This document shows, piece by piece, positions 6,865-24,000 of a stretch of 24,000 bases of DNA. The notes beneath the pieces were generated by a model. It was not told the origin of the DNA, made no database searches, and saw only the letters and a list, made by a program, of their open reading frames with translations. The stretch's first letter is position 1. Each line of letters opens with the position of its first letter. This stretch comes from Tissierella praeacuta DSM 18095 (lineage in GTDB: Bacteria > Bacillota > Clostridia > Tissierellales > Tissierellaceae). The DNA is taken from positions 125,856 to 149,855 of the forward strand of contig NZ_FQTY01000005.1 of NCBI RefSeq assembly GCF_900128955.1, given 5' to 3'. The position numbers and the translations under genes were made by a program.

Positions 6865-6915
6865 AATTCTCCCCCTCACAAAATAGTTTTCGCCAAATGC
6901 TATTGGTATTACTAT

Positions 6916-6934: not shown

Positions 6935-6953
6935 AAAATTAGATAAAAAATAT

Positions 6954-7067
6954 CTTTTAGCAATCTACCTATTTTTTCAGACTTTTAGCAATTTTATAAT
7001 TGTTTTATTGAGTTAATGTGGTATAATTAAATTGTCTTTATTGACAAATATAGCAACTTTTTTGCTA
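6954..7067. promoter_or_regulatory. Candidate enhancer (UAS) sites: repeated TAGCAA half-sites
   Basis: CTTTTAGCAAT occurs at 6954-6964 and 6982-6992 (28-bp period), and the palindrome TAGCAActtttTTGCTA lies at 7051-7067. All are upstream of the sigma-54 promoter in the divergent intergenic region. Confidence 0.35.
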
Positions 7068-7086
7068 GATATGGCAGGTGCCTGAT

Positions 7087-8799: not shown

Positions 8800-8811
8800 G
8801 TTCCTGAAATA

Positions 8812-8847
8812 ATAGACAAGTAGCTTATATGTAAGTTGCCTGTCTAT
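8812..8847 (+). terminator. Imperfect hairpin after the activator gene (weak terminator candidate)
   Basis: ATAGACA...TGTCTAT outer stem with an inner AGCTTA/TAAGTT stem. The downstream tract is A/T-rich rather than a clean T-run. Confidence 0.3.
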
Positions 8848-8857
8848 AATAAATTTA

Positions 8858-8886
8858 TTGCATTTATCTGAGAAATATATTATACT
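8858..8886 (+). promoter_or_regulatory. SigA-type promoter of the feo operon
   Basis: TTGCAT-17 nt-TATACT, immediately upstream of a Fur box. Confidence 0.55.
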
Positions 8887-8894
8887 TATAACGT

Positions 8895-8909
8895 TGATAA
8901 TCGTTATCA
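8895..8909. promoter_or_regulatory. Fur box (7-1-7)
   Basis: TGATAAT-C-GTTATCA differs from the TGATAATnATTATCA consensus at one position. The extended 19-mer GATAATCGTTATCATTATG matches 15 of 19 positions of the classical Fur box. Confidence 0.75.
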
Positions 8910-8947
8910 TTATGGCTTATTTTGTATAAAATGGAAGGATGATATTT

Positions 8948-9172
8948 ATGAGCACTTTATCTTTAGTTTCTTTAAAGCCTAATGAATGTGGAAGAATTAA
9001 GGAAATCTCAGGATGCTGTAAGGCTAAAAAAAGGTTGTACGAGCTTGGTCTCCATAAAAATGCCTATGTTAAAGTTATAAAAAATGATTTTGGTCCTCTA
9101 ATCATTAGTTTATCCGGTAATAAATTGGCTCTAGGTCGCGGGTTAGCCTGTCATATTATAGTTGAGCGTTAA
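8948..9172 (+). CDS. feoA: Ferrous iron transport protein A (FeoA)
   Basis: 74-aa SH3-like FeoA-sized protein directly upstream of feoB. GGAAGGA RBS before the ATG at 8948; the track start at 8939 overlaps the RBS. Confidence 0.8.
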   Translation: MSTLSLVSLKPNECGRIKEISGCCKAKKRLYELGLHKNAYVKVIKNDFGPLIISLSGNKLALGRGLACHIIVER

Positions 9173-9187
9173 TTTTTTGTTATTAGT

Positions 9188-9202
9188 TGATAATGGCTAT
9201 CA
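9188..9202. promoter_or_regulatory. Second, weaker Fur-box-like site between feoA and feoB
   Basis: TGATAAT-G-GCTATCA, two mismatches to the 7-1-7 consensus. Confidence 0.45.
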
Positions 9203-9222
9203 TTTATAAAGGGGGAATTTTT

Positions 9223-11217: not shown

Positions 11218-11228
11218 GAGGGAATTTA

Positions 11229-11489
11229 ATGCTTAGGGACGTCTTAAAAGAAATATCTAATGCTAAAGTATTTTCTGTTTCTTTGATAGCAAAAAAGTTA
11301 AATATATCTGAAACTTTAGTTGAAGATGCAGTAAAAGAATTATCTAGAATGAATTACATTATAGAAGATATGGGTTCCCCTACTTGTGAAACAAAATGCA
11401 GCGGATGCTCAATGAAAGCTTTTTGCAATACAGTCCCAATAAAAACCATTAGTTTAACAGATAAGGGAATGAAGTTGTTAAAACATTAA
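11229..11489 (+). CDS. FeoC-like small winged-helix protein with a C-terminal Cys cluster
   Basis: 86 aa, AGGAGGG RBS, placed immediately after feoB. It has an HTH-like N-terminal half and a CETKCSGCSMKAFC cysteine cluster. Confidence 0.55.
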   Translation: MLRDVLKEISNAKVFSVSLIAKKLNISETLVEDAVKELSRMNYIIEDMGSPTCETKCSGCSMKAFCNTVPIKTISLTDKGMKLLKH

Positions 11490-11520
11490 TATAACTTTTT
11501 GTAATTTTTCAATATTTTAC

Positions 11521-11549
11521 TTGACTAACTTGTTAAAGCGATGTATAAT
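11521..11549 (+). promoter_or_regulatory. Near-consensus SigA promoter starting a ~290-nt non-coding transcript/leader
   Basis: TTGACT-17 nt-TATAAT. No credible ORF follows before the terminator at 11796-11840. Confidence 0.6.
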
Positions 11550-11795
11550 TAATTTAAATAAAACTTTAACTTTTCCACCCTAAAGATTTAAAAAATTTGA
11601 TAGTTTATTTTATTAGTAAGGATTGGAAAAACAATAGTTAGTTTGTAGTATAATAAAAAAGTATTCTGTGTAGTAAAATGTAGAAACCTTTTAAACCCTC
11701 ATTAAATCAACGTAAGGAGTGTATCAGAAGATTGAATTTAGTAGTTGAATTAAATCAATCAGGTTGGAAAGGTTGTAAAAAGTTTTATTTTAAAT

Positions 11796-11840
11796 AATAG
11801 GTAGTTTCTAGAGATATTAGAGACTACCTATTTATTTTTT
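11796..11840 (+). terminator. Intrinsic terminator inside the feoC-pncB intergenic region (leader attenuator or sRNA 3' end)
   Basis: AATAGGTAGTTTCTA-gagatat-TAGAGACTACCTATT forms a 15-bp stem with one G-U pair, followed by TATTTTTT. Confidence 0.75.
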
Positions 11841-11853
11841 GTTATTTCCTTTG

Positions 11854-11882
11854 TTGAACTTTCTTTGCTATAGGTCTATAAT
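11854..11882 (+). promoter_or_regulatory. Proximal promoter-like element before pncB
   Basis: TTGAAC-17 nt-TATAAT, about 30 nt upstream of the pncB RBS. It could be a chance match in AT-rich DNA. Confidence 0.4.
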
Positions 11883-11914
11883 TAGAGTAACAATATATAA
11901 AAAGGAGACTACCG

Positions 11915-13369
11915 ATGATAAGCTTAGATTGGAAAGAGAGAAAAAATCTTACTATGTTAGCAGATTTCTATGAATTCACTATGGCCAACGGATATCTAGA
12001 AAATAACATGGAAAATCAAATTGGATATTTTGACATGTTTTTTAGGAGTATACCAGATGATGGTGGATTTGCTATTATGGCTGGTGTTGAGCAATTAATA
12101 GAATATCTAAGAAATCTTAAGTTCAATGAGGAGGACATTGCCTATTTTGAATCCAAGAAAATTTTTGGAGAAAAGTTTTTAAACTATTTAAGAAATTTTA
12201 AGTTTAAATGCGATGTATGGGCAATTCCAGAAGGTACTCCCATATTTCCTCAAGAACCTATAGTAATTGTAAGAGGACCTGTAGTTCAAGCTCAACTTAT
12301 AGAAACCATGGTTCTTCTAACTATAAACCATCAAAGTTTAATTGCTACTAAAGCTAATAGAATAGTTAGGGCTGCAAATGGAAGAACTGTAATGGAATTT
12401 GGTTCTAGACGTGCTCAGGGTTATGAAGGTGCTATCCTTGGTGCTAGAGCTGCTTATATTGGCGGATGTATCGGAACCGCTAATACCATAGTGGATAGGG
12501 ATTTTAATATTCCAGCATTGGGAACTATGGCTCATAGCTGGGTACAAATGTTTCCTACTGAATTAGATGCTTTTAGGGCATACGCTAAGATTTATCCAGA
12601 TAACTGTACTCTTCTAGTCGATACTTACAATACCTTAAAAGAAGGCATTCCAAATGCAATAACAGTATTTAATGAGGAAATTGTACCATTAGGATTTAGA
12701 CCAAAGGGAATTAGAATAGATAGCGGAGATATTGCTTATCTATCTAAGGAAGCCCGCAAAATGCTTGATGAAGCTGGATTCCCTGATTGCATGATTGTAG
12801 CATCATCCAGTTTAGATGAATATGTTATAAGAGATTTATTAATCCAAGGTGCACAAATTGATTCTTTTGGCGTTGGTGAAAGACTTATAACTGCAAAATC
12901 TCAACCTGTTTTTGGCGGGGTCTATAAATTAACTACAATAGAAAAGGACGGAAAACTTATACCAACAATTAAAGTTAGTGAAAATGTAGGTAAAATAACT
13001 ACACCAGGATTTAAACAAGTTTATAGATTATTCGACAAAGCAACAAATAAAGCTATTGCTGATGTCATTACTTTACATGATGAAATCATTGATGACACTA
13101 AGCCCTATGAAATCTTCCACCCTTTATATACATGGAAGAGAAAGACCTTAGAAAATTTTTATTCTAAGAAACTATTAGTAAAAATCTTTGAAGATGGACA
13201 TTGTATTTATGAAAACCCTACTATTCATGAAATAAAATCTTACTGCAAAGACCAATTAGATTTAATGTGGGATGAAGTCAAGAGATTTGAAAGACCCCAT
13301 AGATATTTCGTAGACTTATCTCAGAAACTATGGAATATTAAGGATGAATTATTAAAGAAACATAAATAA
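11915..13369 (+). CDS. pncB: Nicotinate phosphoribosyltransferase
   Basis: 484 aa. The N-terminal LTMLADFYEFTMANGY block, FGSRRAQG, and GTMAHSWVQ are typical of the class II NAPRTase family. AAAGGAG RBS. Confidence 0.85.
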   Translation: MISLDWKERKNLTMLADFYEFTMANGYLENNMENQIGYFDMFFRSIPDDGGFAIMAGVEQLIEYLRNLKFNEEDIAYFESKKIFGEKFLNYLRNFKFKCDVWAIPEGTPIFPQEPIVIVRGPVVQAQLIETMVLLTINHQSLIATKANRIVRAANGRTVMEFGSRRAQGYEGAILGARAAYIGGCIGTANTIVDRDFNIPALGTMAHSWVQMFPTELDAFRAYAKIYPDNCTLLVDTYNTLKEGIPNAITVFNEEIVPLGFRPKGIRIDSGDIAYLSKEARKMLDEAGFPDCMIVASSSLDEYVIRDLLIQGAQIDSFGVGERLITAKSQPVFGGVYKLTTIEKDGKLIPTIKVSENVGKITTPGFKQVYRLFDKATNKAIADVITLHDEIIDDTKPYEIFHPLYTWKRKTLENFYSKKLLVKIFEDGHCIYENPTIHEIKSYCKDQLDLMWDEVKRFERPHRYFVDLSQKLWNIKDELLKKHK

Positions 13370-13380
13370 GTGTAAATAAT

Positions 13381-13418
13381 AAGTGCTATTTTTGATATCA
13401 AATACAAAAATAGCACTT
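13381..13418. terminator. Bidirectional terminator between the convergent pncB and the 194-aa ORF
   Basis: AAGTGCTATTTTT-12-nt loop-AAAAATAGCACTT, with A/T runs on both sides. Confidence 0.75.
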
Positions 13419-13419
13419 A

Positions 13420-14004
13420 TTATTTTTCTAAAATATATCTGGTTATATCAATATTTTTACTATCAAAAAAAGTAGTTTTGGGGAATTCCATATTCTTATC
13501 TTTAAACCTATTTACAATCAAATAATAATCTTTTTGGGATATATCTTCTTTTTTAACAATATCTCCAAAATCTAATTCAAAATGTGAAATTCTCCTATTA
13601 TTATTTTTCCCATAAACAATATATAATTGATGCTTATCCTTACAAGCATCAGTGATATAATAAATATTAAATAAATATGGAGAAGCTTTATTTGCTGCAA
13701 GTCTGATATACTTATTTATAAATACCTTTTCATATATAACTAACCCAATTTCATTTGAATTCTTTATAGAATAAATTACATATAAATATTTTTTATCATG
13801 ATCATCATAAATAAATTCCTTTATTTCTATAGGTCTCCCCTCTTTTAATTCAATATCCAAAGCTAAGTTTTCATATTTTATTGGAGGAGTTGAAAATAAA
13901 TATTTACTACTAACTTTATATATAATAGACATCCATATGAATAAAATAATAAATAGCACAAAAATATATCTCAAATTTTCATTGATACGATCCAAAACAT
14001 ACAC
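13420..14004 (-). CDS. Hypothetical membrane-anchored protein
   Basis: 194-aa ORF with one N-terminal TM helix (YIFVLFIILFIWMSIIY) and no recognisable motifs. The start codon is ambiguous (GTG, ATG or TTG within 13990-14004, after AGAGG). Confidence 0.5.
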   Translation of the reverse strand: MYVLDRINENLRYIFVLFIILFIWMSIIYKVSSKYLFSTPPIKYENLALDIELKEGRPIEIKEFIYDDHDKKYLYVIYSIKNSNEIGLVIYEKVFINKYIRLAANKASPYLFNIYYITDACKDKHQLYIVYGKNNNRRISHFELDFGDIVKKEDISQKDYYLIVNRFKDKNMEFPKTTFFDSKNIDITRYILEK

Positions 14005-14247
14005 CTCTTTTTTTGCTAAATCAATAGAATAGGAAGAAACAATATTTTATCTATAAGTTCATTCTACATTATTAGAAGTTATTTAATATGAGTTCAAAAG
14101 ATATTAATTTTAGATCCGTTTTTATATTAATTAAATATAGTGCTTTAAAACCTCAATGCTATTAATAAAAAATATATATAATATAGGACATATAACTTTA
14201 AAAAATCACCACTTTAACAATTGCATCTTAATAATAAAATGAAAATT

Positions 14248-14291
14248 AAAAACACTGGTTTTCAGATTAGTTCTGAAAACCAGTGTTTTTT
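14248..14291. terminator. Bidirectional intrinsic terminator downstream of agrD
   Basis: AAAAACACTGGTTTTCAGA-ttagt-TCTGAAAACCAGTGTTTTT is a 19-bp perfect stem with A/T runs on both sides. Confidence 0.8.
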
Positions 14292-14440
14292 GATTTAATG
14301 GATTTGAACAGATTAAATAATCTGGCTACTAGGTTTTCATTGAAAAAGTCAAATTATTAACCTTTATTATATTGTTAATGCAAATCTGTAGAAATTAATT
14401 ATGTTTGATATTAAAAAGTAATCTTTCCAAAACTCTTGTC

Positions 14441-14548
14441 TTATTTCTTTAGAGCCTTAGGTGCCTTAGGTTCATAATATAAAAATGCAGAAATTGTGTT
14501 TGGAGATTCCTCTGCAACTTTTTTTGCTACCTTGCTTATTTTCTCCAT
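14441..14548 (-). CDS. agrD: AgrD-type autoinducing-peptide precursor (35 aa, no cysteine)
   Basis: Hand translation gives MEKISKVAKKVAEESPNTISAFLYYEPKAPKALKK. It starts 4 nt after the agrB stop, has an amphipathic N-terminus, and ends in an EPxxPKxL-type charged tail as in clostridial AgrD. Not in the ORF track because it is too short. Confidence 0.7.
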   Translation of the reverse strand: MEKISKVAKKVAEESPNTISAFLYYEPKAPKALKK

Positions 14549-14552
14549 CCCT

Positions 14553-15161
14553 TTACTTAAAACTTTCTTCATATCCATCTTCCTCCCCTTTAGTTTTATT
14601 ATTAATACTTAATGCCACTATCATTAAAGAACTACTAATGGCAAAGAAGTAATTAATTTCATTTACTAAGCCTAGTACTGTTAATATATGGCATATGGTT
14701 GCTAAAGCCAAGATAACACTTAACCATTTATCCTTTTTCGTATTGCTTTTATTTATAATCTCTTGATTTACAATTCTATTTTTATGTACTGTAGGTTTAG
14801 AGAGATAAATTTTTATAGTAGCATAAATAATAAATATTATTCCTATAATTTCTTTTAAATTCTGATTCAGCCATTTTTCTAAAAACACTATAATAATAAA
14901 ATTTATACTTGTAACAGATAAACATCCTAAATATGTCTTACTATGATAGCCTCCAACATTTCTCCTAAGTAAAATCAGTGTACCTAGGTAAATCACAGCA
15001 GATACTGCTTGTCCCATAATAATTCCAATCAATATAACAATTAGAGATGTTAAGATACTAGTTCCTATTATTTTCATTCCATAAAATATTATTTCAGCTT
15101 CATCTTCATCCATTGTGGATTGTGAAAAACAATATCTAATAAACTGATTTATCACTTTCAA
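14553..15161 (-). CDS. agrB: AgrB-family AgrD-processing membrane endopeptidase
   Basis: 202-aa polytopic protein with RRNVGGYHSKTYLGC. The His and Cys are spaced 7 residues apart, as for the catalytic H77/C84 of S. aureus AgrB. Start is the TTG at 15161 or the GTG at 15155. Confidence 0.85.
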   Translation of the reverse strand: MKVINQFIRYCFSQSTMDEDEAEIIFYGMKIIGTSILTSLIVILIGIIMGQAVSAVIYLGTLILLRRNVGGYHSKTYLGCLSVTSINFIIIVFLEKWLNQNLKEIIGIIFIIYATIKIYLSKPTVHKNRIVNQEIINKSNTKKDKWLSVILALATICHILTVLGLVNEINYFFAISSSLMIVALSINNKTKGEEDGYEESFK

Positions 15162-15265
15162 TCCTAACCCCTTTCTCTTACAATAATTATAACAAGTAAA
15201 TTTTTAAATAGTTAAAAATTGGAGTAAGTGGTCTTTTTTTGGATTGAACGGTTATTTAAGAGTGA
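15110..15265. repeat. agr divergent-promoter segment, copy 1 (agrB 5' end, promoter and conserved 50-bp core at 15204-15253)
   Basis: 156 bp that differ at only 2 positions from 16203-16358. The core TTAAATAGTTAAAAATTGGAGTAAGTGGTCTTTTTTTGGATTGAACGGTT recurs at 20892-20941. The minus-strand promoter TTAACT-18-TATAAT spans 15186-15215. The imperfect direct repeat ACCGTTCAA-N11-ACCACTTAC (minus strand) is a candidate LytTR box pair. Confidence 0.8.
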
Positions 15266-15440
15266 ATACCATAAATAACACAATAAAATCTTATGTGAAT
15301 TGCAGTGGAAAGAAAAGATATATTTATTTAAAATTACATCCTCATAAAAATTCCCTACGTAATAAAACAAAAACATATATATGCCTGTTAATAATAATTT
15401 CCTTAATAAAATCAAAAGCAATGTATTTCCTCTAGACATT
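15244..15440 (+). pseudogene. Decayed fragment of an AgrC-like histidine kinase (N-box/ATPase region)
   Basis: The frame reads ..NTINNTIKSYVNCSGKKRYIYLKLHPHKNSLRNKTKTY.., which parallels LFNTIDNAIEACLNYSGKNKYIYLELYPDGNFLCYKIKNTY of the intact kinase (22.69-22.81 kb). There is no N-terminal domain or H-box, and it is fused directly to the promoter repeat. Confidence 0.65.
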
Positions 15441-15526
15441 GCTTCAGTATAATAGAATATATTATAAATAAATATATTGGATTTATGAATAACTCGATTG
15501 TTATTGTTCTTTTTAACTCCTCCTAT

Positions 15527-15913
15527 TTATTGTTTATAAATTTTTCCTTCAAATGTTGCTAAATAGTACCCCGTTATGGGGTCTATAGTTATGCTTCCTA
15601 CTCGTGCAAGTACTCCTGACCACCAGTACCCATCTGTGTATTCACTGTATTCTACAGCTGCAGGAATATTATTCTTTGAAGAATATCTTTTTTGTATACT
15701 TATAAATTTTCCTCCAAAAAGCGGTTCAGGATTAGCTTTTATATATTCCTCATACTCCTCCTGTGAAAGATTAGGTGAATGTTTTATTGAATCCTGTGTA
15801 TATTGTCCCTCACTTTGTCTATTAAAGTTGTTTTCAGCAAATATTGTATTGTAAGAAAAAAGTACAGACAAAAGAATCATCATTGATAGACAAGTACCTA
15901 ATTTTCTTTTCAT
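15527..15913 (-). CDS. Secreted hypothetical protein (signal peptide)
   Basis: 128 aa. The N-terminal MKRKLGTCLSMMILLSVLFSYNTIFA looks like a Sec signal. GGAGG RBS. Family not recognisable. It lies downstream of agr promoter copy 2. Confidence 0.65.
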   Translation of the reverse strand: MKRKLGTCLSMMILLSVLFSYNTIFAENNFNRQSEGQYTQDSIKHSPNLSQEEYEEYIKANPEPLFGGKFISIQKRYSSKNNIPAAVEYSEYTDGYWWSGVLARVGSITIDPITGYYLATFEGKIYKQ

Positions 15914-15989
15914 ACCATTTACCTCCTTCTATTTTTGTTGTTCTTTTTATACCATATATGTCTGCTTTTTATTACTGATTTTTCATTCT

Positions 15990-16088
15990 TTACCAATGAT
16001 TTATGGTGGTATTTACAAGGAAAAATGTAAATTCTATATTTGTTGACCCTTCTGTATTCTTCTTTACTTCATTACTTATTTTCTCCAT
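15990..16088 (-). CDS. AgrD-related small peptide (32 aa), divergent and possibly decayed
   Basis: Hand translation gives MEKISNEVKKNTEGSTNIEFTFFLVNTTINHW. It shares MEKIS..KK with AgrD and the same junction sequence (TTATTTTCTCCATCC), but lacks the EP-type tail and any Cys. Confidence 0.35.
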   Translation of the reverse strand: MEKISNEVKKNTEGSTNIEFTFFLVNTTINHW

Positions 16089-16254
16089 CCCTCCCACTAC
16101 TGTTGATACATGACATATTGTTGCTAAAGCTAGGATAATACTTAGCCATATATCCTTTTTTGTATTACTTTTATTTATAATTTCTTTTAAATTCTGATTC
16201 AGCCATTGTGGATTGTGAAAAACAATATCTAATAAACTGATTTATCACTTTCAA
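16089..16254 (-). pseudogene. agrB remnant, copy 2 (5' end plus patches, internally deleted)
   Basis: The first ~17 codons are identical to agrB (MKVINQFIRYCFSQSTM). The sequence then jumps to patches matching agrB 14.69-14.88 kb. The reading frame stops after ~27 codons. Confidence 0.8.
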
Positions 16255-16358
16255 TCCTAACCCCTTTCTCTTACAATAATTATAACAAGTAGATTTTTAA
16301 ATAGTTAAAAATTGGAGTAAGTGGTCTTTTTTTGGATTGAAGGGTTATTTAAGAGTGA
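16203..16358. repeat. agr divergent-promoter segment, copy 2
   Basis: 154 of 156 positions identical to 15110-15265. TTAACT-18-TATAAT is retained (16279-16308, minus strand). Confidence 0.85.
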
Positions 16359-16438
16359 TATTCTCAATATAGTTATGAATAAAATAAGGTACATACATAA
16401 CTCCATATGAGTACTCATATATACATCTGCTTATATTA

Positions 16439-16465
16439 GAAAAAAAGAGGGCTGTTTAACCCTCG
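16439..16465 (-). terminator. Intrinsic terminator ending the RiPP-like operon
   Basis: Minus strand reads GAGGGTtaaacaGCCCTC followed by TTTTTTT, 9 nt after the stop of precursor C. Confidence 0.7.
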
Positions 16466-16473
16466 ATAATCAG

Positions 16474-16638
16474 TTATTCAACTAAACATGGTACTCCACC
16501 ACAATTACAGCCACAACCACATCCACAGCCACTCCCAGAACTACAACCACGTCCGCAGGAACATCCTTGTACACAGCCTGCACCACATCCTGCAACTATC
16601 AAATCTCTTAAACTTCTCTCATCTCTTAAAATTTCCAT
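16474..16638 (-). CDS. Cys/Gly-rich precursor peptide C (54 aa, 11 Cys)
   Basis: Hand translation gives MEILRDERSLRDLIVAGCGAGCVQGCSCGRGCSSGSGCGCGCGCNCGGVPCLVE. GGGGAGGA RBS 8 nt upstream. The N-terminus is shared with the other two peptides. Not in the ORF track. Confidence 0.75.
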   Translation of the reverse strand: MEILRDERSLRDLIVAGCGAGCVQGCSCGRGCSSGSGCGCGCGCNCGGVPCLVE

Positions 16639-16774
16639 AATCTTATTCCTCCCCTCATATAATATATATCACTATTCCCATGGGGTAATAATACAGGTAG
16701 ATGTTGTGATTTCCTTTTTCCACCAAACCAACCAAGTAATTACTCATATCATAGGAATTAGAGATGTCTTCATT

Positions 16775-18598
16775 TTAAACATAGTATTTCGCCTGGGTTT
16801 GATAATATTTAGCATAATCTCCATTTTTATCTATAAGTTCTCTATGAGAGCCCTGTTCAAATATAGTCTTATTCTTTATAAAAATAATTTGATCAGCAGT
16901 TGATGCACAAGTCATTCTATGAGAAATATAAATAACAAGTTTATCTGCAGCTAAATTCTTGAATTTGCTTAATAAATCATCTTCAGATATTGGGTCTAAT
17001 GCAGATGACGGCTCGTCCAGCATTATTACTGGTGTTTCTCTAAACAAAGCTCTAGCCAATGCAAGCTTTTGATTTTCTCCTCCTGAAAGAATTACTCCGT
17101 CTTCATAAAAAATCTTATCAAGGTTTGTATGTATCCCTTTAGGTAAAGTTTTAATCTTACCACCTAATCCAACTTCTTGAAGATATGAAGAAATCTTAAA
17201 TTCATTACTATCATTGGATTTATTCAAAGCTACATTTTCAGCAATTGTAAAAGAAAAGTATTTAAAATCTTGAAAAACTATGCTAAATATATTTCTATAA
17301 TCCATATAATCTATTTGATTTATTGGAATATTATTTAAGTATATGGTTCCTGAAGTTGGTTCATATAATCCGCTTATTAAATTAATTAGGGTACTCTTTC
17401 CTGCTCCATTTTCTCCAACAATAACGTAGACTTTACCATATTCAAAAACATAATTTATATTTTCCAGAACATATTTATCTGTTCCTGGATAAGCAAAATA
17501 TACATTCTCTAAACGTATTGTTAAATCATTACCTTTTAATACACTCTCTATTGTTTTTATTTCTCCATTTTTTAATAAGATATCATTATTTCTCTTAATA
17601 TCACTTTCCAGCTCCATAAATTCTCTAAAAGATTCTATATACTTTCCATTTATATTTAATTGAGTTATAAATCCTACAAAGTTTAATATAGCACTTGAAA
17701 GCTGACTTGTAGCAGTAAAATATTGAGAAAATTGTCCCACAGTTATATTACCAATAAAAGTTTTCCATGCTAAATATAAATAAATGCCGTTACTTTTTAA
17801 ATTTTCTCCTATTATACTTACTATTTTAATATTCATACTCGTATTGTATAATTTTTTCAATCTAATTCTTAAAAAGCTTAGAGTAGTCAAATATTTGTTC
17901 ATAATCCAGTCAACAAATCCAAACATCTTCATTTCTTTTGCAGAACTACTCTCCCCCATAATCCTTATATAATAGTTAAGAATACGTGTTAAATATATAT
18001 TTTCATCTCTTTGTGAGATTTTCCAATTCTCCGATTTTAAATTTAGATAAACAGAAAAAAATGAAAAAAGTATTATAACGAAAATTAAATTAATATCTGC
18101 AGAGATTATTATAATGGTAGTAGATATAATTAATACTATACTTGATAAAGAATGAAATAAACTATTTATTAAATTGATACCTATTCCTTTATAGATTATA
18201 TCTTGGGCTAAAGCTAATTTTTGATGAGTTTCCGGCAAGTCTAATTGTGCCATATCTAATGATACGACCTTTTTATTAATAATTAATAAAAAATGCATTG
18301 CATAAAGATGCCCATTAAGATTCACATATTTTTCAGTCAAAATCGCAGTAATTAGTGATGCTGTCAATTGAATTAAAATATAAATTAAAATATAGTTTAC
18401 TATTTCACTAAAATTCTTACGGTTAATTAATCCATCAATTATTAGTTTCGGTATTATTATATATATTAATGGAATTAAACCTTCTATAATTGAAATTATT
18501 CCTTGGGATATGACATAGGATTTACTAAACTCAAAAACATATTTGAAAAAATAAAAATTATTCTTTATATTGTTTTTATAATTTTTTTTAGAGTCCAT
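16775..18598 (-). CDS. ABC exporter, fused permease and ATPase (no N-terminal C39 peptidase domain)
   Basis: 607 aa with an N-terminal six-TM-type domain. Walker A GENGAGKST, signature LSGGENQKLALARAL, Walker B IMLDEPSSALD. AAAGGAG RBS. Confidence 0.9.
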   Translation of the reverse strand: MDSKKNYKNNIKNNFYFFKYVFEFSKSYVISQGIISIIEGLIPLIYIIIPKLIIDGLINRKNFSEIVNYILIYILIQLTASLITAILTEKYVNLNGHLYAMHFLLIINKKVVSLDMAQLDLPETHQKLALAQDIIYKGIGINLINSLFHSLSSIVLIISTTIIIISADINLIFVIILFSFFSVYLNLKSENWKISQRDENIYLTRILNYYIRIMGESSSAKEMKMFGFVDWIMNKYLTTLSFLRIRLKKLYNTSMNIKIVSIIGENLKSNGIYLYLAWKTFIGNITVGQFSQYFTATSQLSSAILNFVGFITQLNINGKYIESFREFMELESDIKRNNDILLKNGEIKTIESVLKGNDLTIRLENVYFAYPGTDKYVLENINYVFEYGKVYVIVGENGAGKSTLINLISGLYEPTSGTIYLNNIPINQIDYMDYRNIFSIVFQDFKYFSFTIAENVALNKSNDSNEFKISSYLQEVGLGGKIKTLPKGIHTNLDKIFYEDGVILSGGENQKLALARALFRETPVIMLDEPSSALDPISEDDLLSKFKNLAADKLVIYISHRMTCASTADQIIFIKNKTIFEQGSHRELIDKNGDYAKYYQTQAKYYV

Positions 18599-18635
18599 AT
18601 AAGCTCCTTTTTTCTTGATAATATAAACATCAAGG

Positions 18636-18673
18636 GGCTGGTATTTAAATAAATAACAATTTAAGTACCAGCC
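18636..18673 (-). promoter_or_regulatory. Stem-loop between precursor A and the ABC gene (possible partial terminator or processing site)
   Basis: GGCTGGTA-22 nt-TACCAGCC, 14 nt after the precursor A stop. There is no clean U-tract. Confidence 0.35.
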
Positions 18674-18686
18674 AACTGATATTTAA

Positions 18687-18914
18687 CTAATTTGCAGTCC
18701 CGCAGCCGCAGCCACAGCCCATTCCATTTGGAGGGCAGGTATTACCGCCACCTTCACCAGAACAATTACAACCACACCCATAGCCAGGATAATCCCCGCC
18801 ATTCCCTGGCGGAAAGCCTGTACAGCCACAGCCATAACCATTTTGACAACCACAGCCACAACCCATACCAGGATTATCATTACCATTAAAGCATGAATTT
18901 CTAACTATCTCCAT
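18687..18914 (-). CDS. Cys/Gly-rich precursor peptide A (75 aa, 13 Cys, 24 Gly; four GCGC blocks)
   Basis: MEIVRNSCFNGNDNPGMGCGCGCQNGYGCGCTGFPPGNGGDYPGYGCGCNCSGEGGGNTCPPNGMGCGCGCGTAN. AGAGGTGAT RBS 5 nt upstream. Of the three overlapping ORFs here, only this frame has an RBS and shares its N-terminus and core type with peptides B and C. Confidence 0.75.
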   Translation of the reverse strand: MEIVRNSCFNGNDNPGMGCGCGCQNGYGCGCTGFPPGNGGDYPGYGCGCNCSGEGGGNTCPPNGMGCGCGCGTAN

Positions 18915-19102
18915 GGAATATCACCTCTTTTCTAAAATATATTATTAATATATTTTAAGCCCATGAATTAATAAAATATTGTCTGAAATAAACTAGATTA
19001 CTATATTCATACTCATTTATATCTTTAAAATCTCAATATTTTAATATACGATTTTCATATTAATACCTACTAATCAAGTCCTTAAAAATTACATACTTTG
19101 AA

Positions 19103-19210
19103 TTATGCTTTAGTCCCACAACCACAACCACATCCACATCCGCAGCCACATCCTGCCCCACTAGCCATAATCGATATACCATTATTTTTTTCATCTCTAA
19201 TTATATCCAC
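19103..19210 (-). CDS. Cys/Gly-rich precursor peptide B (35 aa; the core is a pure (GC)6 repeat)
   Basis: Hand translation from GTG 19208-19210 gives MDIIRDEKNNGISIMASGAGCGCGCGCGCGCGTKA. GGAGGTG RBS 7 nt upstream. It lies 73 nt downstream of the radical SAM gene. Not in the ORF track. Confidence 0.7.
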   Translation of the reverse strand: MDIIRDEKNNGISIMASGAGCGCGCGCGCGCGTKA

Positions 19211-19283
19211 ATTATCACCTCCACATTAATATATTATTTATTATTCTATATTCATGTGCTTAAAACCAAAGAATTTAAGCATA

Positions 19284-20621
19284 TTACCTATAAGTACTTA
19301 TTAAATTTTCTAATTCGCTTTCTTCAATTTTGGGATCACAAAAATATTTTTCCCCATGAACACGTCCATTTACACATCTACCGCCAAAACAAATTGGTAA
19401 TACCCTACACTCCTTGCACTCATCTTGCAAGTCAACCTTATTACTAATCCACCTAGAATGTTTATCTTCAGCTAAATTCATTGAACCATCTTCTGATATG
19501 TATCCAATTTTATTAAGATCATCATCTAATGATAAGGTACATTTTAAAATCGAACCATCATAATCAATTATTAAATTATTGTGTTTAGAAGCATAACATA
19601 CCCTACTATAAGGTCGTGTCATAACATCCACCACATCATTGTTTATGTTTAGCTGTTTTATTACTTTAGCAATATTTACAGAGGATTTAGCAACATCTAA
19701 TTTATCTAGTATATCTAATTTATCATCATTACAGCCACCAAGTCTTTTTATACCTTCATAATATATACTAAACCTATTATCAAAATTTTCTTTTATATAT
19801 TTATAAAATTCTTCTGCCCGTAAAAATACTTCATCATTAAAATTAGTGCGTATTGTTACTTTAAAATTATAATCCGTGCTAGCCATATATTTCAAATTTT
19901 CCATTATCTTGTCCCAACTACCTCTACCATCAACACTAGCCCTATACTTATCATGAGTTTCTTTAAATCCATCTACTGTTATCTGATAATATCTACAGTT
20001 TAAAGAAGAAAGAACTTCAAACCTTTCTGGATATATCAACGCACCATTTGTTGTTGCGCTTGCACTATAAGGAATTCCGTACTCTTCACATAATGATTTT
20101 ACTTTTCCTAAAAAAGCTACAACTTTATCATATTCTACAAATGGTTCTCCGCCAAAAAGTGATATAGCAACACCTGTATATAATTTATTTCTTAGAGAAT
20201 TATCTATATACTTCAATATACTGCTATAAAGGTCTTCTGTCATAGCTTTATTCTCATGTTCTTCATAGCAGTAAATACATCTGAGATTACATTGCCTTGT
20301 TACAATTAAAGTCAGTACTAAGGTAGTATCTCTTACAACATCCCTTTCATAACAATACCTAGCAAATTCATATTCTCTTCTATCTTTAGGAACTAGAATC
20401 CCTTTTTCATAAAAAGTCAATATCATCTCATCAGAGTTATCATAAATAATTGTATCTTTTTCCATTATCTCTCTCAATTTTCTAACATTTATTTCTGAAT
20501 AAATGTAAATTATTGCACCAGAAAGAGAATTATAAACCAAATATGTACCGTCCTCTTTAGGTATAAAAAAATTATAATAGCTTTTTTTCAATACATTTGG
20601 TTTTATCATAAGCTTTTCCAT
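19284..20621 (-). CDS. Radical SAM/SPASM peptide-modifying enzyme with an N-terminal RRE-like extension
   Basis: 445 aa. CNLRCIYC (CxxxCxxC) sits about 110 residues in. The C-terminal SPASM pattern is CYASKHNNLIIDYDGSILKC (Cx13Gx4C), then CKECRVLPICFGGRC, then FCDPK. GAGGAG RBS. Confidence 0.9.
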   Translation of the reverse strand: MEKLMIKPNVLKKSYYNFFIPKEDGTYLVYNSLSGAIIYIYSEINVRKLREIMEKDTIIYDNSDEMILTFYEKGILVPKDRREYEFARYCYERDVVRDTTLVLTLIVTRQCNLRCIYCYEEHENKAMTEDLYSSILKYIDNSLRNKLYTGVAISLFGGEPFVEYDKVVAFLGKVKSLCEEYGIPYSASATTNGALIYPERFEVLSSLNCRYYQITVDGFKETHDKYRASVDGRGSWDKIMENLKYMASTDYNFKVTIRTNFNDEVFLRAEEFYKYIKENFDNRFSIYYEGIKRLGGCNDDKLDILDKLDVAKSSVNIAKVIKQLNINNDVVDVMTRPYSRVCYASKHNNLIIDYDGSILKCTLSLDDDLNKIGYISEDGSMNLAEDKHSRWISNKVDLQDECKECRVLPICFGGRCVNGRVHGEKYFCDPKIEESELENLISTYR

Positions 20622-20696
20622 TAAATCATCTCCTCATATAATATGATCATCCCCAACTTATAAGCCACCTAAGTATATTTAATTCTTTACATAGCT

Positions 20697-20850
20697 ATAT
20701 TTCCCCTATCCTCCCCTCTAGTTTTAATATCATTAAAAAACTGCTAATGGAAAAGAAGTAATTAAATTTCATCCATTAATCACATTACTGTCAAATTTAT
20801 TATTGTTAGAATTAAGATAATAAGCCATATATCCTTTTTGCATTGCTTAT
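20697..20850 (-). pseudogene. agrB remnant, copy 3 (3' third only)
   Basis: Aligns by eye with agrB 14.57-14.75 kb, for example CTGCTAATGGAAAAGAAGTAATTAAATTTCAT versus CTACTAATGGCAAAGAAGTAATTAATTTCAT. It is joined directly to the agr 5'-UTR and has no intact frame. Confidence 0.7.
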
Positions 20851-20856
20851 ATCATA

Positions 20857-20943
20857 CTCTTTCCCTTATAATAATAATAGCAGGTACGATTTTAAATAGT
20901 TAAAACTTGGAGTAAGTGGTCTTTTTTTGGGCTGAACGGTTTT
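20857..20943. repeat. agr divergent-promoter segment, copy 3 (between the rSAM operon and the LytTR regulator gene)
   Basis: Core 20892-20941 is near-identical to 15204-15253. The minus-strand TTAACT-18-TATTAT (20874-20903) keeps the -35, -10 and 18-nt spacing although the spacer sequence has diverged. Confidence 0.8.
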
Positions 20944-20956
20944 TAGGAGGATAGTT

Positions 20957-21682
20957 ATGTTCAAAATTGGGATTTGTGAGGATAATAAAATTTTTTCATT
21001 AGAATTGAAGTCAATTATTGAAAGAAAATTTACTCAGTACAATTTAGAATCTAAAATAAATTGCTTTTATTCAGGAGAAGACACTCTTGAAGGTATTCTA
21101 AATGCAAAGGAAAGGTATGATATTATATTTTTTGATATAGAGCTACCAAAATTAAATGGAATAGAAGTAGCACGAAAAATTAGGGAATTATATGATGATA
21201 CCATATTTATATTTATCACATATCTAGATGAAAAGGTATATGAAGCTTTAGATTTAACAATTTTTCATTTTATTAGAAAAAGTCATTTTCAAAAGGAAAT
21301 TAATTTAATTCTTGATTCATTAATAAAAAAACTTGACTATTTAACTGAAAAATATGCCTTTCCCATAGGGGAAGATAATGTTTATTTTAGACTTTATGAT
21401 ATTTTATATCTTGAAATATTAAATAGACAATTAATTATACATACTAAAGAAAATGTATATACTTCAACCTATCGTTCCTTAAAAGATATTTCATTTGATT
21501 TAACAAAAAAACATTTTTATGAAGTATATCGAGGGATTATGGTTAATCTCAATCATGTAAAGGATTTTATAGATAATAAAATTATCCTTTCTAATGGAGA
21601 TATAGTTTATATAGCAAGAAGAAGACTCAATGGATTTAAAGAAGAATTCTATAAATATATTTCATCCAAGAGAGAGGGATAA
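20957..21682 (+). CDS. agrA: LytTR-family response regulator (AgrA-like)
   Basis: 241 aa with an N-terminal receiver domain (YDIIFFDIELPKLNG acceptor-Asp region) and a C-terminal LytTR-type domain (..YRGIMVNLNHV..). AGGAGG RBS. Confidence 0.85.
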   Translation: MFKIGICEDNKIFSLELKSIIERKFTQYNLESKINCFYSGEDTLEGILNAKERYDIIFFDIELPKLNGIEVARKIRELYDDTIFIFITYLDEKVYEALDLTIFHFIRKSHFQKEINLILDSLIKKLDYLTEKYAFPIGEDNVYFRLYDILYLEILNRQLIIHTKENVYTSTYRSLKDISFDLTKKHFYEVYRGIMVNLNHVKDFIDNKIILSNGDIVYIARRRLNGFKEEFYKYISSKREG

Positions 21683-21684
21683 TA

Positions 21685-23013
21685 ATGTCACGTCTTAATA
21701 TTATATTAAACTTTTTATTCTGTATAATAGATGCTATGATCTTTATAAATCTGTTATATATTTTTAAAGATAATAAAAGCGAATACAAATTCACTGATAA
21801 TATCTCTATAATAGCAGGAATATCCATTGCAATATTCTTCTTTACTCAGTTGGGAATTATTCCTTACACTAAGGTAATCCTTATTTCAATAGTTCTGTTT
21901 TTTATAACATTTTTATATGAACTTAGATTATATCAACAACTTTTAATTGTTATATTATATTATTTTATATTAATTATATCAGAATTATTAATTACATTAT
22001 TAGCTTCAAATATTTTAAGTGTAGGTGTAGATAGTATTGGAAAACACAACTATTCTTTCTTTTTTTTAGGAACAATTAGTAAGTTCTTATCTATATTAAT
22101 TCTTTCGTTAGTTAAAAGAAGATTTGCCAATAGGAAAATCATACTTCCTATAATTCTAAATTATATTATTATATTGATATTACTAATATCTACTATTTCA
22201 ATGGTTTTATTGTTTTATTCTAATTTAAATTCGCATTCTAAAAGTATTCAATTTATTTTATTTCTTGTTTGTTTATTTACCTTATTTACTAGCATAGGCA
22301 TCTTGATAATTTATTTTTATGCAAACGATTTTTATATTGATTTACAAAAAGAAACTACTAAAAAAATTTATGATAAGTCATACGAAAAATTTATAGCTAA
22401 TGCTGAATTGAGAAATGACTCTTTAGCTAAAATATGGCATGATATAGGAAACCATATTAAAGTCTTAGAAAAAATGAACAAAATAGAAAATAATACTGAT
22501 ATTGAATATATTAATTCAATAAAAAATAGACTTAAATCAATTCCCAATACCATAAATACTGGAAATAAATTAATAGATATAATATTGAATGATAAGTATT
22601 CAGAAGGTATTATGAAAGGTATAGACTTTGATATAAAAGCAATAGCTCCTCCTAAAATAGACATTGATGATATGGACTTAAGTTCTATATTGTTTAATAC
22701 TATAGATAATGCAATAGAAGCTTGTCTAAATTATAGTGGGAAGAATAAATATATTTATTTAGAGTTATATCCAGATGGAAACTTTTTATGTTATAAAATT
22801 AAAAACACATATACTCCTATTAAAAATACCTCTGTTAAAAATTTTTACTTTAACAAAAAACAATATATTTCTTCTGGATATGGGCTTAGTATAATAAAAG
22901 ATATTGTAAATAAGTATGATGGCTACATGGATATAAATAAAGATGATAAAGAGTATTCAGTTACTATTGTTCTTCATTTAAATAACCAATCAGTCCAAGA
23001 AATAACCACTTAG
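21685..23013 (+). CDS. agrC: AgrC-like (HPK10-type) membrane sensor histidine kinase
   Basis: 442 aa with about 6 N-terminal TM helices. H-box KIWHDIGNHIKVL, N-box LFNTIDNAIEA, G-box SSGYGLSIIKDIV. Starts 3 nt after the regulator stop. Confidence 0.85.
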   Translation: MSRLNIILNFLFCIIDAMIFINLLYIFKDNKSEYKFTDNISIIAGISIAIFFFTQLGIIPYTKVILISIVLFFITFLYELRLYQQLLIVILYYFILIISELLITLLASNILSVGVDSIGKHNYSFFFLGTISKFLSILILSLVKRRFANRKIILPIILNYIIILILLISTISMVLLFYSNLNSHSKSIQFILFLVCLFTLFTSIGILIIYFYANDFYIDLQKETTKKIYDKSYEKFIANAELRNDSLAKIWHDIGNHIKVLEKMNKIENNTDIEYINSIKNRLKSIPNTINTGNKLIDIILNDKYSEGIMKGIDFDIKAIAPPKIDIDDMDLSSILFNTIDNAIEACLNYSGKNKYIYLELYPDGNFLCYKIKNTYTPIKNTSVKNFYFNKKQYISSGYGLSIIKDIVNKYDGYMDINKDDKEYSVTIVLHLNNQSVQEITT

Positions 23014-23087
23014 TCCAAATTTAAACTGTCTTTAGTTTTGTTTGTTATAATAATTATAAAATTTGGTACAAAATAAAGGAGGTATTT

Positions 23088-23273
23088 ATGAAGGATTTTG
23101 TAAAAGATTTTTTTACAAAAAGATTAGAATTAAATTTTATTAATATTTTAATGATAGCTTTACTTGTTTATGTCTATAATCTTTCTGGAAACAAATATTT
23201 TTTAGTCTACCTTTTTTTCTTTAGACTTATTGCATTATGTATAGATTATCTGACAGATTATTTAAAAAATTAA
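23088..23273 (+). CDS. Small hypothetical membrane protein
   Basis: 61 aa with a strong AAGGAGG RBS and two hydrophobic segments. No recognisable motif. Confidence 0.45.
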   Translation: MKDFVKDFFTKRLELNFINILMIALLVYVYNLSGNKYFLVYLFFFRLIALCIDYLTDYLKN

Positions 23274-23380
23274 ATACATCCTAGCCTAAAATTTTCTTAA
23301 TCAAAATTTTTCTTGAAAAATCATTCACCTTATCTTTAGATTTTTATATATTTTAATTTTAAAGATAAATAAACCTTTTA

Positions 23381-23427
23381 TAATAAACAGACAGTGGCTT
23401 TATGTAAAGCCACTGTCTGTTTATTAT
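23381..23427. terminator. Bidirectional intrinsic terminator
   Basis: TAATAAACAGACAGTGGCTTT-atgt-AAAGCCACTGTCTGTTTATTA is a 21-bp perfect stem flanked by A/T-rich runs. Confidence 0.75.
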
Positions 23428-23430
23428 AAA

Positions 23431-23622
23431 TTACAAATCATAATCGTCCCAATAAAAATCAAATTCATCTCCCATATTATCTATATAATATTTATAATCA
23501 CGATCTTCATATGCCCATATAGATTCTCTACCCCTATCTCCTTCATAATTTCTATATGGACCACCATTATAATAAAACCTCTTAAGATTAGTATCATATA
23601 ATTTGCGTGCTATCCCAATCAC
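23431..23622 (-). CDS. Hypothetical Tyr/Asp-rich protein, possibly the 3' part of a disrupted gene
   Basis: 63-aa ORF from GTG. The in-frame upstream sequence (to the stop at 23722-23724) encodes a TM-like segment NIATILIAIFTLRVLLLCIVIGIA but has no canonical start codon or RBS. Confidence 0.3.
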   Translation of the reverse strand: MIGIARKLYDTNLKRFYYNGGPYRNYEGDRGRESIWAYEDRDYKYYIDNMGDEFDFYWDDYDL

Positions 23623-23775
23623 TATACATAGTAGCAGTACCCTTAGCGTAAATATAGCAATTAATATAGTAGCAATATTAGAAACAGTAGCATTTTTTTC
23701 AATTCCATTATCATCAAATAGCTACTATCAATGATTAATTTACAATAAGTATAACAGATATAATTGATTTATTGC

Positions 23776-24000
23776 TAAAGCTTGGATTAAATTGAATGGG
23801 ATACTTAATAATATTAAACAATAAATATTCAGAAAGAACTATGAAAAATATAGACTTTGATATAAAAACAATAATTCTTCTTGAAATAGACATTGATAAT
23901 ATGGACTTAAGCTCTATATTGTTTAATACTATAGATAATGCAATAGAAGCTTATCTAAATTATAGTGGGAAATAAATATATTTATTTAGAGTTATATCCA
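23776..24000 (+). pseudogene. Second decayed copy of the AgrC-like kinase gene (runs to the window end)
   Basis: 23.80-24.00 kb aligns with 22.56-22.77 kb of the intact kinase (..DFDIK..IDIDNMDLSSILFNTIDNAIEAYLNYSG..). A 2-nt deletion (GGGAAATAAATAT versus GGGAAGAATAAATAT) creates an in-frame TAA. Upstream domains are missing. Confidence 0.7.

Follow-up and report, generated by a model that had tools for sequence, protein, structure and literature searches.

A 24,000-nt stretch of the Tissierella praeacuta DSM 18095 genome (contig NZ_FQTY01000005.1, positions 125,856 to 149,855; hereafter the window) carries a repeated element that stands in front of the agrBD genes of a quorum-sensing system and, in further copies, in front of other genes, among them an operon for a radical S-adenosylmethionine (rSAM) maturase, three Cys-Gly-repeat precursors and an ATP-binding cassette (ABC) exporter, i.e. 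a putative cluster for a peptide that is made on ribosomes and modified after translation (RiPP). From our point of view it is likely that this repeat represents the operator-promoter of the local agr circuit and that the LytTR-type response regulator encoded next to it would activate the four units behind the copies P1 to P4, including the rSAM operon. Since a copy of the agr control region stands before the cluster, the latter is probably switched on by cell density.

The comparison drew on five Tissierella genomes, which together supplied 11 copies of the operator, namely the window itself, the metagenome-assembled genome (MAG) of Tissierella sp. CTOTU49745 (L002), which is colinear with the window at ~95% nucleotide identity, Tissierella sp. 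MB52-C2 (L070), T. carlieri (L071) and T. creatinophila (L072); L004 denotes an unrelated Clostridia MAG. Proteins were scanned with Pfam and NCBIfam profiles (ten cluster proteins, from agrD through the kinase, 14441-23013). A scan of the window with the 34-nt core pattern ACCNNTCANYCCAANAAANNACCACTTASTCCAA, allowing up to three mismatches, yielded four matches, compared with 0.00 expected from 100 shuffles, at 15219-15252 (-), 16312-16345 (-), 20907-20940 (-) and 22985-23018 (+). The fourth is inverted with respect to the other three and overlaps the last codons and the stop of the kinase gene, and a fifth is found just past the right end of the window in the 95%-identical strain (L002:1546-1579). 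A previous interpretation of the same DNA, made from the letters alone (the sequence-only reading), had described the region as triplicated; the repetition is real, but the count was too low, as there are at least four copies in the window and five in the locus. It was exact in giving two differences over 156 positions between 15110-15265 and 16203-16358 (the mismatches lie at 15199 and 15249, and identity collapses beyond the limits of these tracts), and it was also right in calling the core of the third copy almost unchanged: this copy (20859-20944) is 86% identical to the first, with only three differing positions within the operator core and the -35 hexamer. The minus-strand promoter-like site that it had named recurs at copies 1 to 3, as TTAACT-18-TATAAT in copies 1 and 2 and as TTAACT-18-TATTAT in copy 3, all with a TG before the -10; copy 4 has the -35 hexamer TAAACT, followed by TGnTATAAT.

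Each operator consists of two imperfect direct repeats of 12-14 nt (ACCnnTnAnTCCAA) with a 20-nt period. The -35 hexamer begins 4 nt and the TGnTATAAT element 27 nt past the repeat, and this spacing is invariant across all 11 copies. It has been described that LytTR regulators recognize two repeats of 9-11 nt with a separation of 11-13 nt (PMC4847170), and in all 11 copies the ACCnnTnAnTCC repeats follow each other at 20 nt from start to start and stand directly upstream of a weak -35 in fixed register. The anatomy of the repeat thus appears to be that of a LytTR/AgrA-type activator operator. Across the 11 copies, the information content amounts to 1.5-1.8 bits per position in the repeats, 1.36 in the -35/-10 elements and 0.8-0.9 in the flanks. 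In addition, P3, P4 and P5 occupy orthologous positions in different species, although the regulators of these species share only ~70% identity: in each of the three species with a P3 (MB52-C2 and T. carlieri included), this site is located 17 nt upstream of the regulator ATG, P4 has orthologues in MB52-C2 (L070 12014-12047) and T. carlieri (L071 12027-12060), and P5, seen in L002 and orthologous across species, adjoins the V-ATPase D gene. Because spacing, information content and orthologous positions have been kept across species, the conservation seems to be due to purifying selection on an operator-promoter module and not to be that of neutral debris. A metagenome scan for ACCACTTASTCCAANTTTWAAC (right repeat plus -35) returned a single match, inside an unrelated gene on a contig without agr genes, and this was dismissed as chance.

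With regard to the circuit itself, an AgrB peptidase and an AgrD precursor are recognized by PF04647 and TIGR04223, and an AgrC-type polytopic kinase together with a LytTR regulator, the only one encoded in the window, by PF14501, PF00072 and PF04397. The predicted ring of AgrD is SAFLY, followed by YEPKAP. The genes do not form a single agrBDCA operon of the staphylococcal kind, as agrBD (14441-15161, minus strand) and the regulator-kinase pair (20957-23013, plus strand) are ~5.8 kb apart. In the circuit that we propose, AgrB would process AgrD to a cyclic (lactone) peptide, the AgrC-type kinase would sense this peptide and phosphorylate the LytTR regulator, and the regulator would bind all operator copies and activate four units. 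P1 would drive agrBD and hence provide positive feedback, P2 the decayed agr remnant and the 128-aa secreted protein, P3 the rSAM maturase, the three Cys-Gly-repeat precursors and the ABC exporter, and P4 a 61-aa membrane peptide. One working circuit would be split around the RiPP cluster, which would now be among its outputs.

The predicted transcription units run from P1 through agrB and agrD to the terminator at 14290-14248, from P2 through agr debris and the 128-aa gene (with no terminator), from P3 through the genes for the rSAM maturase, precursor B, precursor A, the ABC exporter and precursor C to a terminator, and from P4 through the 61-aa open reading frame (ORF) to the palindromic terminator at 23377-23430. 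The P3 unit is predicted to extend through precursor C because P3 is the sole promoter-like site that is listed for the minus strand in the interval from the rSAM start to the regulator gene and because the first terminator-like site downstream of it on this strand lies at 16464-16447. The sequence-only reading had considered copy 3 also as the divergent promoter region of the regulator-kinase pair. Copy 3 is located 17 nt upstream of the regulator gene, but its operator faces the rSAM side, and since it points in this direction and ends 17 nt before the regulator ATG, it cannot, judging from this geometry, be a classical activating site for the pair.

A comparison of the window with L002 provides a further argument for a connection between the separated parts. 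The sensor half of the kinase (21663-22262) shows only 62-89% identity as compared to ~98% in its flanks, and agrD (14451-14550) differs in the ring (SAFLY versus STFLY) as well as by changes in the leader; the remainder of the window is mostly 95-100% identical, and the divergence is hence confined to these two elements. This pattern resembles agr specificity groups and, because the sensor half and agrD alone have diverged between these two strains, suggests that the peptide encoded at P1 is the signal for the kinase at P3. The two diverged elements are ~6 kb apart, with the conserved RiPP operon in between.

How could such an arrangement have arisen? In T. carlieri, agrB starts right after P3 and runs opposite to the regulator, and for this reason the ancestral Tissierella unit appears to have been a divergent one, with agrB and agrD on one side of the promoter and the regulator and kinase genes on the other. 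It is strongly supported that complete units of this kind were duplicated and then decayed reciprocally, because the agrB debris after copies 2 and 3 and the kinase fragment at copy 1 are colinear with the intact unit. After copy 2, the agrB/agrD pieces match 15265-15089, 14875-14844 (100%), 14764-14671 (85%) and 14552-14481 (71%), and after copy 3 they match 14752-14619 (73%) and 14607-14581 (85%). The kinase fragment at 15265-15491, which translates as NTINNTIKSYVNCSGKKRYIYLKL versus NTIDNAIEACLNYSGKNKYIYLEL in the kinase, begins just past P1 on its upstream side, at the point at which one would expect the start of the regulator gene, and 11 nt found upstream of both P1 and P2 (CACTCTTAAAT) have their counterpart in the region of the regulator ribosome-binding site (RBS) at P3 (CCTCCTAAAA). 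Unit 1 is colinear with unit 3 and bears a deletion from the regulator start into the N-box of the kinase, such that it has retained agrBD and lost the regulator and most of the kinase. Unit 3 has kept both regulator and kinase intact, with agrB cut to ~150 nt and agrD to a start remnant, the former place of which is occupied by the rSAM module. Unit 2 has lost everything but the promoter and now carries the secreted-protein gene.

Duplication of a whole agr unit, its subsequent decay and the resulting position of a LytTR-type promoter before the rSAM genes had already been postulated in the sequence-only reading, together with agrB fragments after copies 2 and 3. The fragments were found as colinear matching pieces, and the scenario is borne out by this debris, by the pattern in T. 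carlieri, by MB52-C2 and by agr-free rSAM modules in other genomes. What had been overlooked is the kinase-gene debris at 15265-15491 and 23808-24000, and the designation of copy 3 as an extra copy has to be reversed: being conserved in MB52-C2 and T. carlieri, it appears to be the positionally conserved ancestral control region, and the intact agrBD would lie in a duplicated unit. A second divergent unit is also present in T. carlieri, with the same reciprocal decay as in T. praeacuta: agrB is intact in one unit, the operator of which is degenerate and the regulator gene of which is a fragmented pseudogene, and in the other unit agrB is frameshifted and both regulator and kinase are intact. 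The second T. carlieri unit (L071 3448-5231), which is situated near an insertion sequence (IS; rve) fragment, comes with a second copy of the V-ATPase D gene's 3' part (151 aa), suggesting that the duplications took in flanking housekeeping sequence. In MB52-C2, the same chromosomal slot, between pncB and the V-ATPase operon, contains P3, a deletion remnant of agrB, an intact agrD, a membrane ORF of 76 aa, a secreted protein of 173 aa and, lastly, an agrB that is intact; the rSAM module is absent from this slot, and P3 faces agrD and other cargo there. P3 of T. praeacuta and P5 of L002 have one common deletion junction, which suggests that the module of promoter and truncated agrB was itself copied. 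Synteny across Tissierella is found in the left flank (8212-13369, with feoAB and the nicotinate phosphoribosyltransferase gene; cf. L070 58-4659) as well as in the right flank, where L002, L070 and L071 show the V-ATPase operon, and the agr/cargo region would hence represent a variable island of ~9 to 16 kb in a fixed chromosomal slot.

For copy 2, an AgrD-like peptide and a secreted 128-aa protein had been named as cargo in the sequence-only reading. The 128-aa ORF stands, but the 35-aa "AgrD-like" ORF (15990-16097) has lost its start and its C-terminal half and gave no match to TIGR04223 even at E<=1, a model that the intact AgrDs of the window, L070 and L004 do match, and it appears to be a pseudogene remnant and not a functional AgrD. 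Homologues of the 128-aa protein, which has no Pfam or NCBIfam family match, were found at 48-98% identity, the 98% one in another public NCBI contig. The contexts of two of them (79% and 73%), examined for an intact donor of the P2 cassette, were devoid of operator and agr genes; on a metagenome contig (L074), a homologue adjoins a VanZ-like gene. The 1,093-bp P2 cassette is missing from L002, where only one promoter, and then an intact agrB, comes after precursor C. Within the cassette, the agr debris is old (70-85% identity), whereas the 156-bp tract with the promoter shares 99% identity with P1. The most economical explanation would be a gene conversion between P1 and P2 in the lineage of the window and a loss of the cassette by recombination between P1 and P2 in that of L002.

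Tepidibacter thalassicus, many Lachnospiraceae and a Tissierellales MAG possess the rSAM-precursor-ABC module with no agr next to it, and the module adjoins unrelated regulators there (NarL-type, AraC-type, sigma-54 activator). When the AgrB, regulator and kinase of the window were used for tblastn against 28 loci with rSAM homologues, linkage was detected in L002 only, and weakly in L004. Because the module occurs without agr elsewhere and is absent from the MB52-C2 locus, it would seem to be a portable cassette that ended up, in the lineage of T. praeacuta, behind the ancestral agrB promoter.

In the unrelated L004, an ORF-less agrB copy, in which the catalytic His codon has changed to Tyr, forms the leader of a homologous rSAM operon. 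As the same signature is seen there independently, one could speculate that duplication of agr units followed by reciprocal decay is a recurrent route in Clostridia by which cargo is wired into quorum-sensing regulons, with agrB fossils as 5' leaders, although we put this forward tentatively and at somewhat less than even chances. On the same tentative footing, the cargo here would comprise secreted proteins and small membrane peptides besides an undescribed Cys-Gly-repeat rSAM RiPP family, and perhaps a short RNA as well, and the circuit would be split around the very cluster that it controls. The L004 locus further holds a second agrB-derived copy before a gene for a 275-aa secreted protein, and an intact AgrD with a frameshifted agrB downstream of the exporter. 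Its three agrB-derived copies are located within 6571-7916, 12476-13188 and 15984-17432, and ~0.9-kb repeats (91-99% identical) carry N-terminal fragments of response regulators.

Several observations weigh against the proposed circuit and its origin. The 20-nt period, if read as 9 nt plus 11 nt, lies at the short end of the known LytTR range, and the right repeat only partly fits the classical GTT-containing LytTR motif. An extended -10 could give basal or constitutive transcription independent of the regulator, and the leader of ~245 nt between P3 and the rSAM start could harbor a weak internal promoter. For the regulator-kinase pair, a plus-strand promoter is represented by weak consensus matches only (TTTCCA-16-TATAAT at 20615-20642 in the promoter scan and, by eye, TTGCTT-17/18-TATAAT at 20843-20872), and as the operator stands between any such promoter and the regulator ATG, its occupation might also repress the regulator. 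Lastly, the covariation of agrD and the kinase sensor stems from a comparison of two strains only, and the agrB frameshift of T. carlieri, seen in a metagenome contig, is possibly an assembly error.

It is conceivable that the copies before the rSAM operon and the 128-aa gene are fossils, either inert or transcribed constitutively from their extended -10, and that the RiPP is produced independently of quorum. TGnTATAAT promoters are able to work without an activator, the surroundings of copies 2 and 3 are all debris, and the NarL-type, AraC-type and sigma-54 regulators beside the rSAM module elsewhere would fit such a scenario as well. However, the operators have kept 33-34 of the 34 pattern positions compared with 73% identity in the adjacent debris, they persist in other species at orthologous sites, the rSAM gene has no second promoter-like site listed upstream of it, and the cargo ORFs are intact, those also present in L002 being 95-99% conserved, so that we regard fossil promoters as rather unlikely. 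The regulator could also bind at P3 but exert mainly a negative effect or act on the divergent regulator-kinase operon, as a roadblock or through promoter occlusion in the service of autoregulation, instead of activating the rSAM genes. The distance of 17 nt from the operator end to the regulator ATG, the same in all three P3-bearing species, speaks for this possibility, since any plus-strand promoter has to lie upstream and its transcript must cross the bound site. Yet the geometry from the repeat to the -35 and -10 is identical to that of P1, which serves agrBD, and is directed to the rSAM side, and in the Fsr system the regulator gene has a constitutive promoter and the LytTR sites activate target operons (PMC5454873). 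Activating and repressing roles are, moreover, mutually compatible, and a chiefly negative P3 appears decidedly improbable to us.

The occurrence of multiple copies in both orientations, the 99% identity of P1 and P2 next to flanks of 70-85%, and the IS fragment in the T. carlieri locus would also be in line with a small mobile element or recombination site, similar to a miniature inverted-repeat transposable element (MITE) or an att site, or with an assembly artefact in the case of P1 and P2. Terminal inverted repeats and target duplications, as expected of a MITE, did not turn up in the repeat search, however, and the copies always bear colinear pieces of agrB or of the regulator and kinase genes, which indicates that whole gene units were copied; three of the sites are, in addition, orthologous between species. 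Against an artefact, an independent short-read assembly (L001) breaks exactly at the repeat, as it would at a real one, and the content of the P1-P2 cassette is unique, its 128-aa protein having a 98%-identical homologue in another contig. To both of these explanations we attach hardly any credence, and we continue with the agr operator-promoter as the preferred one. The features on which it builds are compiled in Table 1.

Table 1. Features of the agr/cargo region in window coordinates; functions of promoters and terminators are predicted.
Feature	Position	Strand	Evidence and remarks
Intrinsic terminator closing the agrBD unit	14248..14290	(-)	19-bp stem, then T run
agrD, intact autoinducer precursor, 45 aa	14441..14578	(-)	TIGR04223, 35.4 bits vs cut-off 19
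agrB, intact, 202 aa	14553..15161	(-)	Pfam PF04647, 97.5 bits
P1 operator-promoter	15186..15252	(-)	operator 15219-15252, -35 TTAACT 15215-15210, TGnTATAAT -10 15191-15186; drives agrBD (predicted)
Kinase-gene 3' fragment, N-box region, without intact gene	15265..15491	(+)	~70-73% to 22696-22930, same strand
128-aa protein, signal-peptide-like N-terminus; P2 cargo	15527..15913	(-)	ORF
agrD remnant, 35-aa ORF, GTG start	15990..16097	(-)	71% nucleotide identity to 14481-14552
agrB debris after P2	16093..16254	(-)	first 17 codons, then three internal deletions; colinear pieces, repeat families D5, D12
P2 operator-promoter	16279..16345	(-)	operator 16312-16345; 156-bp tract 16203-16358 99% identical to P1
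Intrinsic terminator ending the rSAM operon	16447..16464	(-)	just after precursor C
Precursor C, 54 aa, Cys-Gly-rich core	16474..16638	(-)	ORF; conserved in L001, L002
ABC exporter, 607 aa	16775..18598	(-)	PF00005 and MsbA-like NCBIfam matches
Precursor A, 75 aa, CGCGC repeats	18687..18914	(-)	ORF; homologous precursors in L004, L010, L012, L016, L017
Precursor B, 35 aa, GCGCGCGCGCGC core	19103..19210	(-)	ORF
Radical SAM/SPASM peptide maturase, 445 aa	19284..20621	(-)	PF04055; best NCBIfam CefB 196 bits, TIGR04463 181 bits
agrB 3'-end debris and agrD start remnant	20709..20852	(-)	73-85% to 14752-14581; within ~245-nt rSAM leader
P3 operator-promoter	20874..20940	(-)	operator 20907-20940 and TTAACT-18-TGnTATTAT; orthologous sites in L070, L071
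LytTR response regulator, 241 aa; presumed operator binder	20957..21682	(+)	PF00072, PF04397; 100% identity with the regulator of DSM 18095
AgrC-type membrane histidine kinase (GHKL), 442 aa, hypervariable sensor half	21685..23013	(+)	PF14501 HATPase_c_5, 60.1 bits
P4 operator-promoter	22985..23051	(+)	operator 22985-23018, -35 TAAACT, TGnTATAAT -10 23046-23051
61-aa ORF, two hydrophobic segments, strong RBS; P4 cargo	23088..23273	(+)	97% conserved in L002
Perfect 26-bp palindrome, likely bidirectional terminator	23377..23430	(.)	inverted repeat I8
Second kinase pseudogene fragment, runs past the window	23796..24000	(+)	23808-24000 87-90% to 22579-22752; continues in L002 6487-6859

Concerning the nature of the RiPP, the maturase scored below every curated cut-off of the named rSAM RiPP maturase families in NCBIfam (bits/cut-off: CefB NF038107 196/600, TIGR04463 181/525, CcpM TIGR04068 90/500, SCIFF 70.6/425, PapB 122/340), and no NCBIfam or Pfam model matched any of the three precursors. 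As the maturase is far below the family cut-offs and the precursors are without a model, the Cys-Gly-repeat product family is apparently undescribed, and the maturase apparently belongs to a related but undescribed subfamily. The three precursors have a common leader start, M-[DE]-I-[ILV]-R-[DN], and cores of CGCGC or GCGC repeats, and homologous clusters are widespread in MAGs of Lachnospiraceae, Oscillospiraceae and Defluviitaleaceae. The possibility that the agrB debris in the leader of the rSAM operon acts as a structured RNA was rejected, as folding gave no signal (z=+0.73), and an Rfam search of 13300-24000 returned nothing above threshold, with sub-threshold matches on terminator hairpins only.

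At the right end of the locus, the cargo of P4 varies from species to species. The ~60-aa ORF that this promoter faces in T. carlieri is unrelated to the one in T. praeacuta, and either ORF contains two hydrophobic segments. That the 61-aa P4 cargo is an AgrB fragment was considered and discarded (BLASTP E=2.1, no family match). In MB52-C2, the P4 module (L070 12014-12160) is not followed by any ORF of at least 25 aa, and ~90 nt downstream a GAAGG...CCTTC hairpin with a T run is found, because of which P4 may drive a short RNA in this strain. In the window, a 63-aa Tyr/Asp-rich ORF (…YYNGGPYRNYEGDRGRE…DFYWDDYDL; 23431-23622, minus strand) converges on the P4 terminator; it is kept in L002 but more divergent there, with only 77% identity at 23463-23562. 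Further to the right, L002 1546-4251 comprises the fifth operator-promoter and then debris of agrB and a remnant of agrD (36 aa), after which come two small ORFs and a VanZ-family protein of 469 aa, and in MB52-C2 a GGGGATA heptamer is repeated four times in tandem directly after the -10 of the P5 module (L070 13330-13388). Among the 63-aa, 61-aa and 128-aa proteins and the cargo proteins of L002 and L004, VanZ for L002:2842-4251 was the only Pfam or NCBIfam assignment obtained.

If the proposed circuit holds true, the Cys-Gly-repeat rSAM peptides of T. praeacuta DSM 18095, a culturable type strain, would be made only at high cell density or in the presence of the predicted lactone peptide, and this would offer a practical switch for a silent RiPP cluster. 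Apart from that, the locus represents an unusually legible record of regulon growth, since the promoter copies retain fragments of the genes that were duplicated with them. Functions would have been partitioned between the duplicated units via reciprocal loss, and strain-level divergence is limited to the signal and sensor parts despite their separation by ~6 kb.

The overall design is familiar, the closest known systems being the Fsr, VirSR and pln regulons. An analogy restricted to logic and outcome is provided by streptococcal streptide, in which a peptide pheromone circuit (Rgg/SHP) switches on the adjacent rSAM RiPP operon, the SHP peptide being imported and the Rgg receptor being cytoplasmic. 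Among the ten scanned cluster proteins, none matched an Rgg-type regulator, the regulator present being of the LytTR type. In the pln regulon of Lactobacillus plantarum, one LytTR regulator acts on the same direct-repeat promoter before every operon of the bacteriocin locus, including the autoinduction operon, as we propose for Tissierella; the inducer there, however, is a linear double-glycine peptide that leaves via an ABC transporter and is not cyclized by an AgrB, and the products are unmodified bacteriocins and not rSAM RiPPs. The direct-repeat promoters of this LytTR system (PlnABCD) are mentioned here as cited within PMC4847170.

An agr system that directly controls a neighboring gene resembling a RiPP enzyme has been described in C. 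acetobutylicum, where agrBDCA controls the adjacent lanM-like CA_C0082, a gene kept next to agr operons (PMC10301443). CA_C0082, however, lacks catalytic residues, a precursor and an exporter, whereas the Tissierella cluster is complete and stands behind a duplicated agr promoter. With C. perfringens VirSR, in which VirR boxes are found at five targets and the signal comes from an unlinked agrBD (PMC4877802), our locus has in common a clostridial LytTR regulator, two imperfect direct repeats just upstream of the target promoters and an Agr-type peptide, the agrBD genes for which are located apart from those of the two-component system. The targets of VirR, in contrast, are toxins, a protease and small RNAs across the genome and include no RiPP cluster, and there is no evidence that VirR boxes spread via duplication of agr units. 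The E. faecalis Fsr system (fsrABDC) likewise is an agr-type circuit, in which an AgrB-like protein and a cyclic lactone peptide go together with an AgrC-like kinase and a LytTR regulator, with FsrA sites before the autoinduction operon and a few effector operons, including that of an antimicrobial peptide precursor (fsrB, gelE-sprE and ef1097/enterocin O16), and a constitutively expressed regulator gene (PMC5454873). It differs from the Tissierella locus in that the output of the latter would be an rSAM RiPP cluster with its own exporter, around which agrBD and the regulator-kinase pair are split, that the target promoters still bear agrB and kinase fossils, and that binding and induction are predicted here. 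In comparison to these systems, what we infer to be new is an agr circuit that controls an rSAM RiPP cluster as output, that would be physically split around this cluster and that appears to have preserved a fossil record of how its promoter spread by unit duplication and reciprocal loss.

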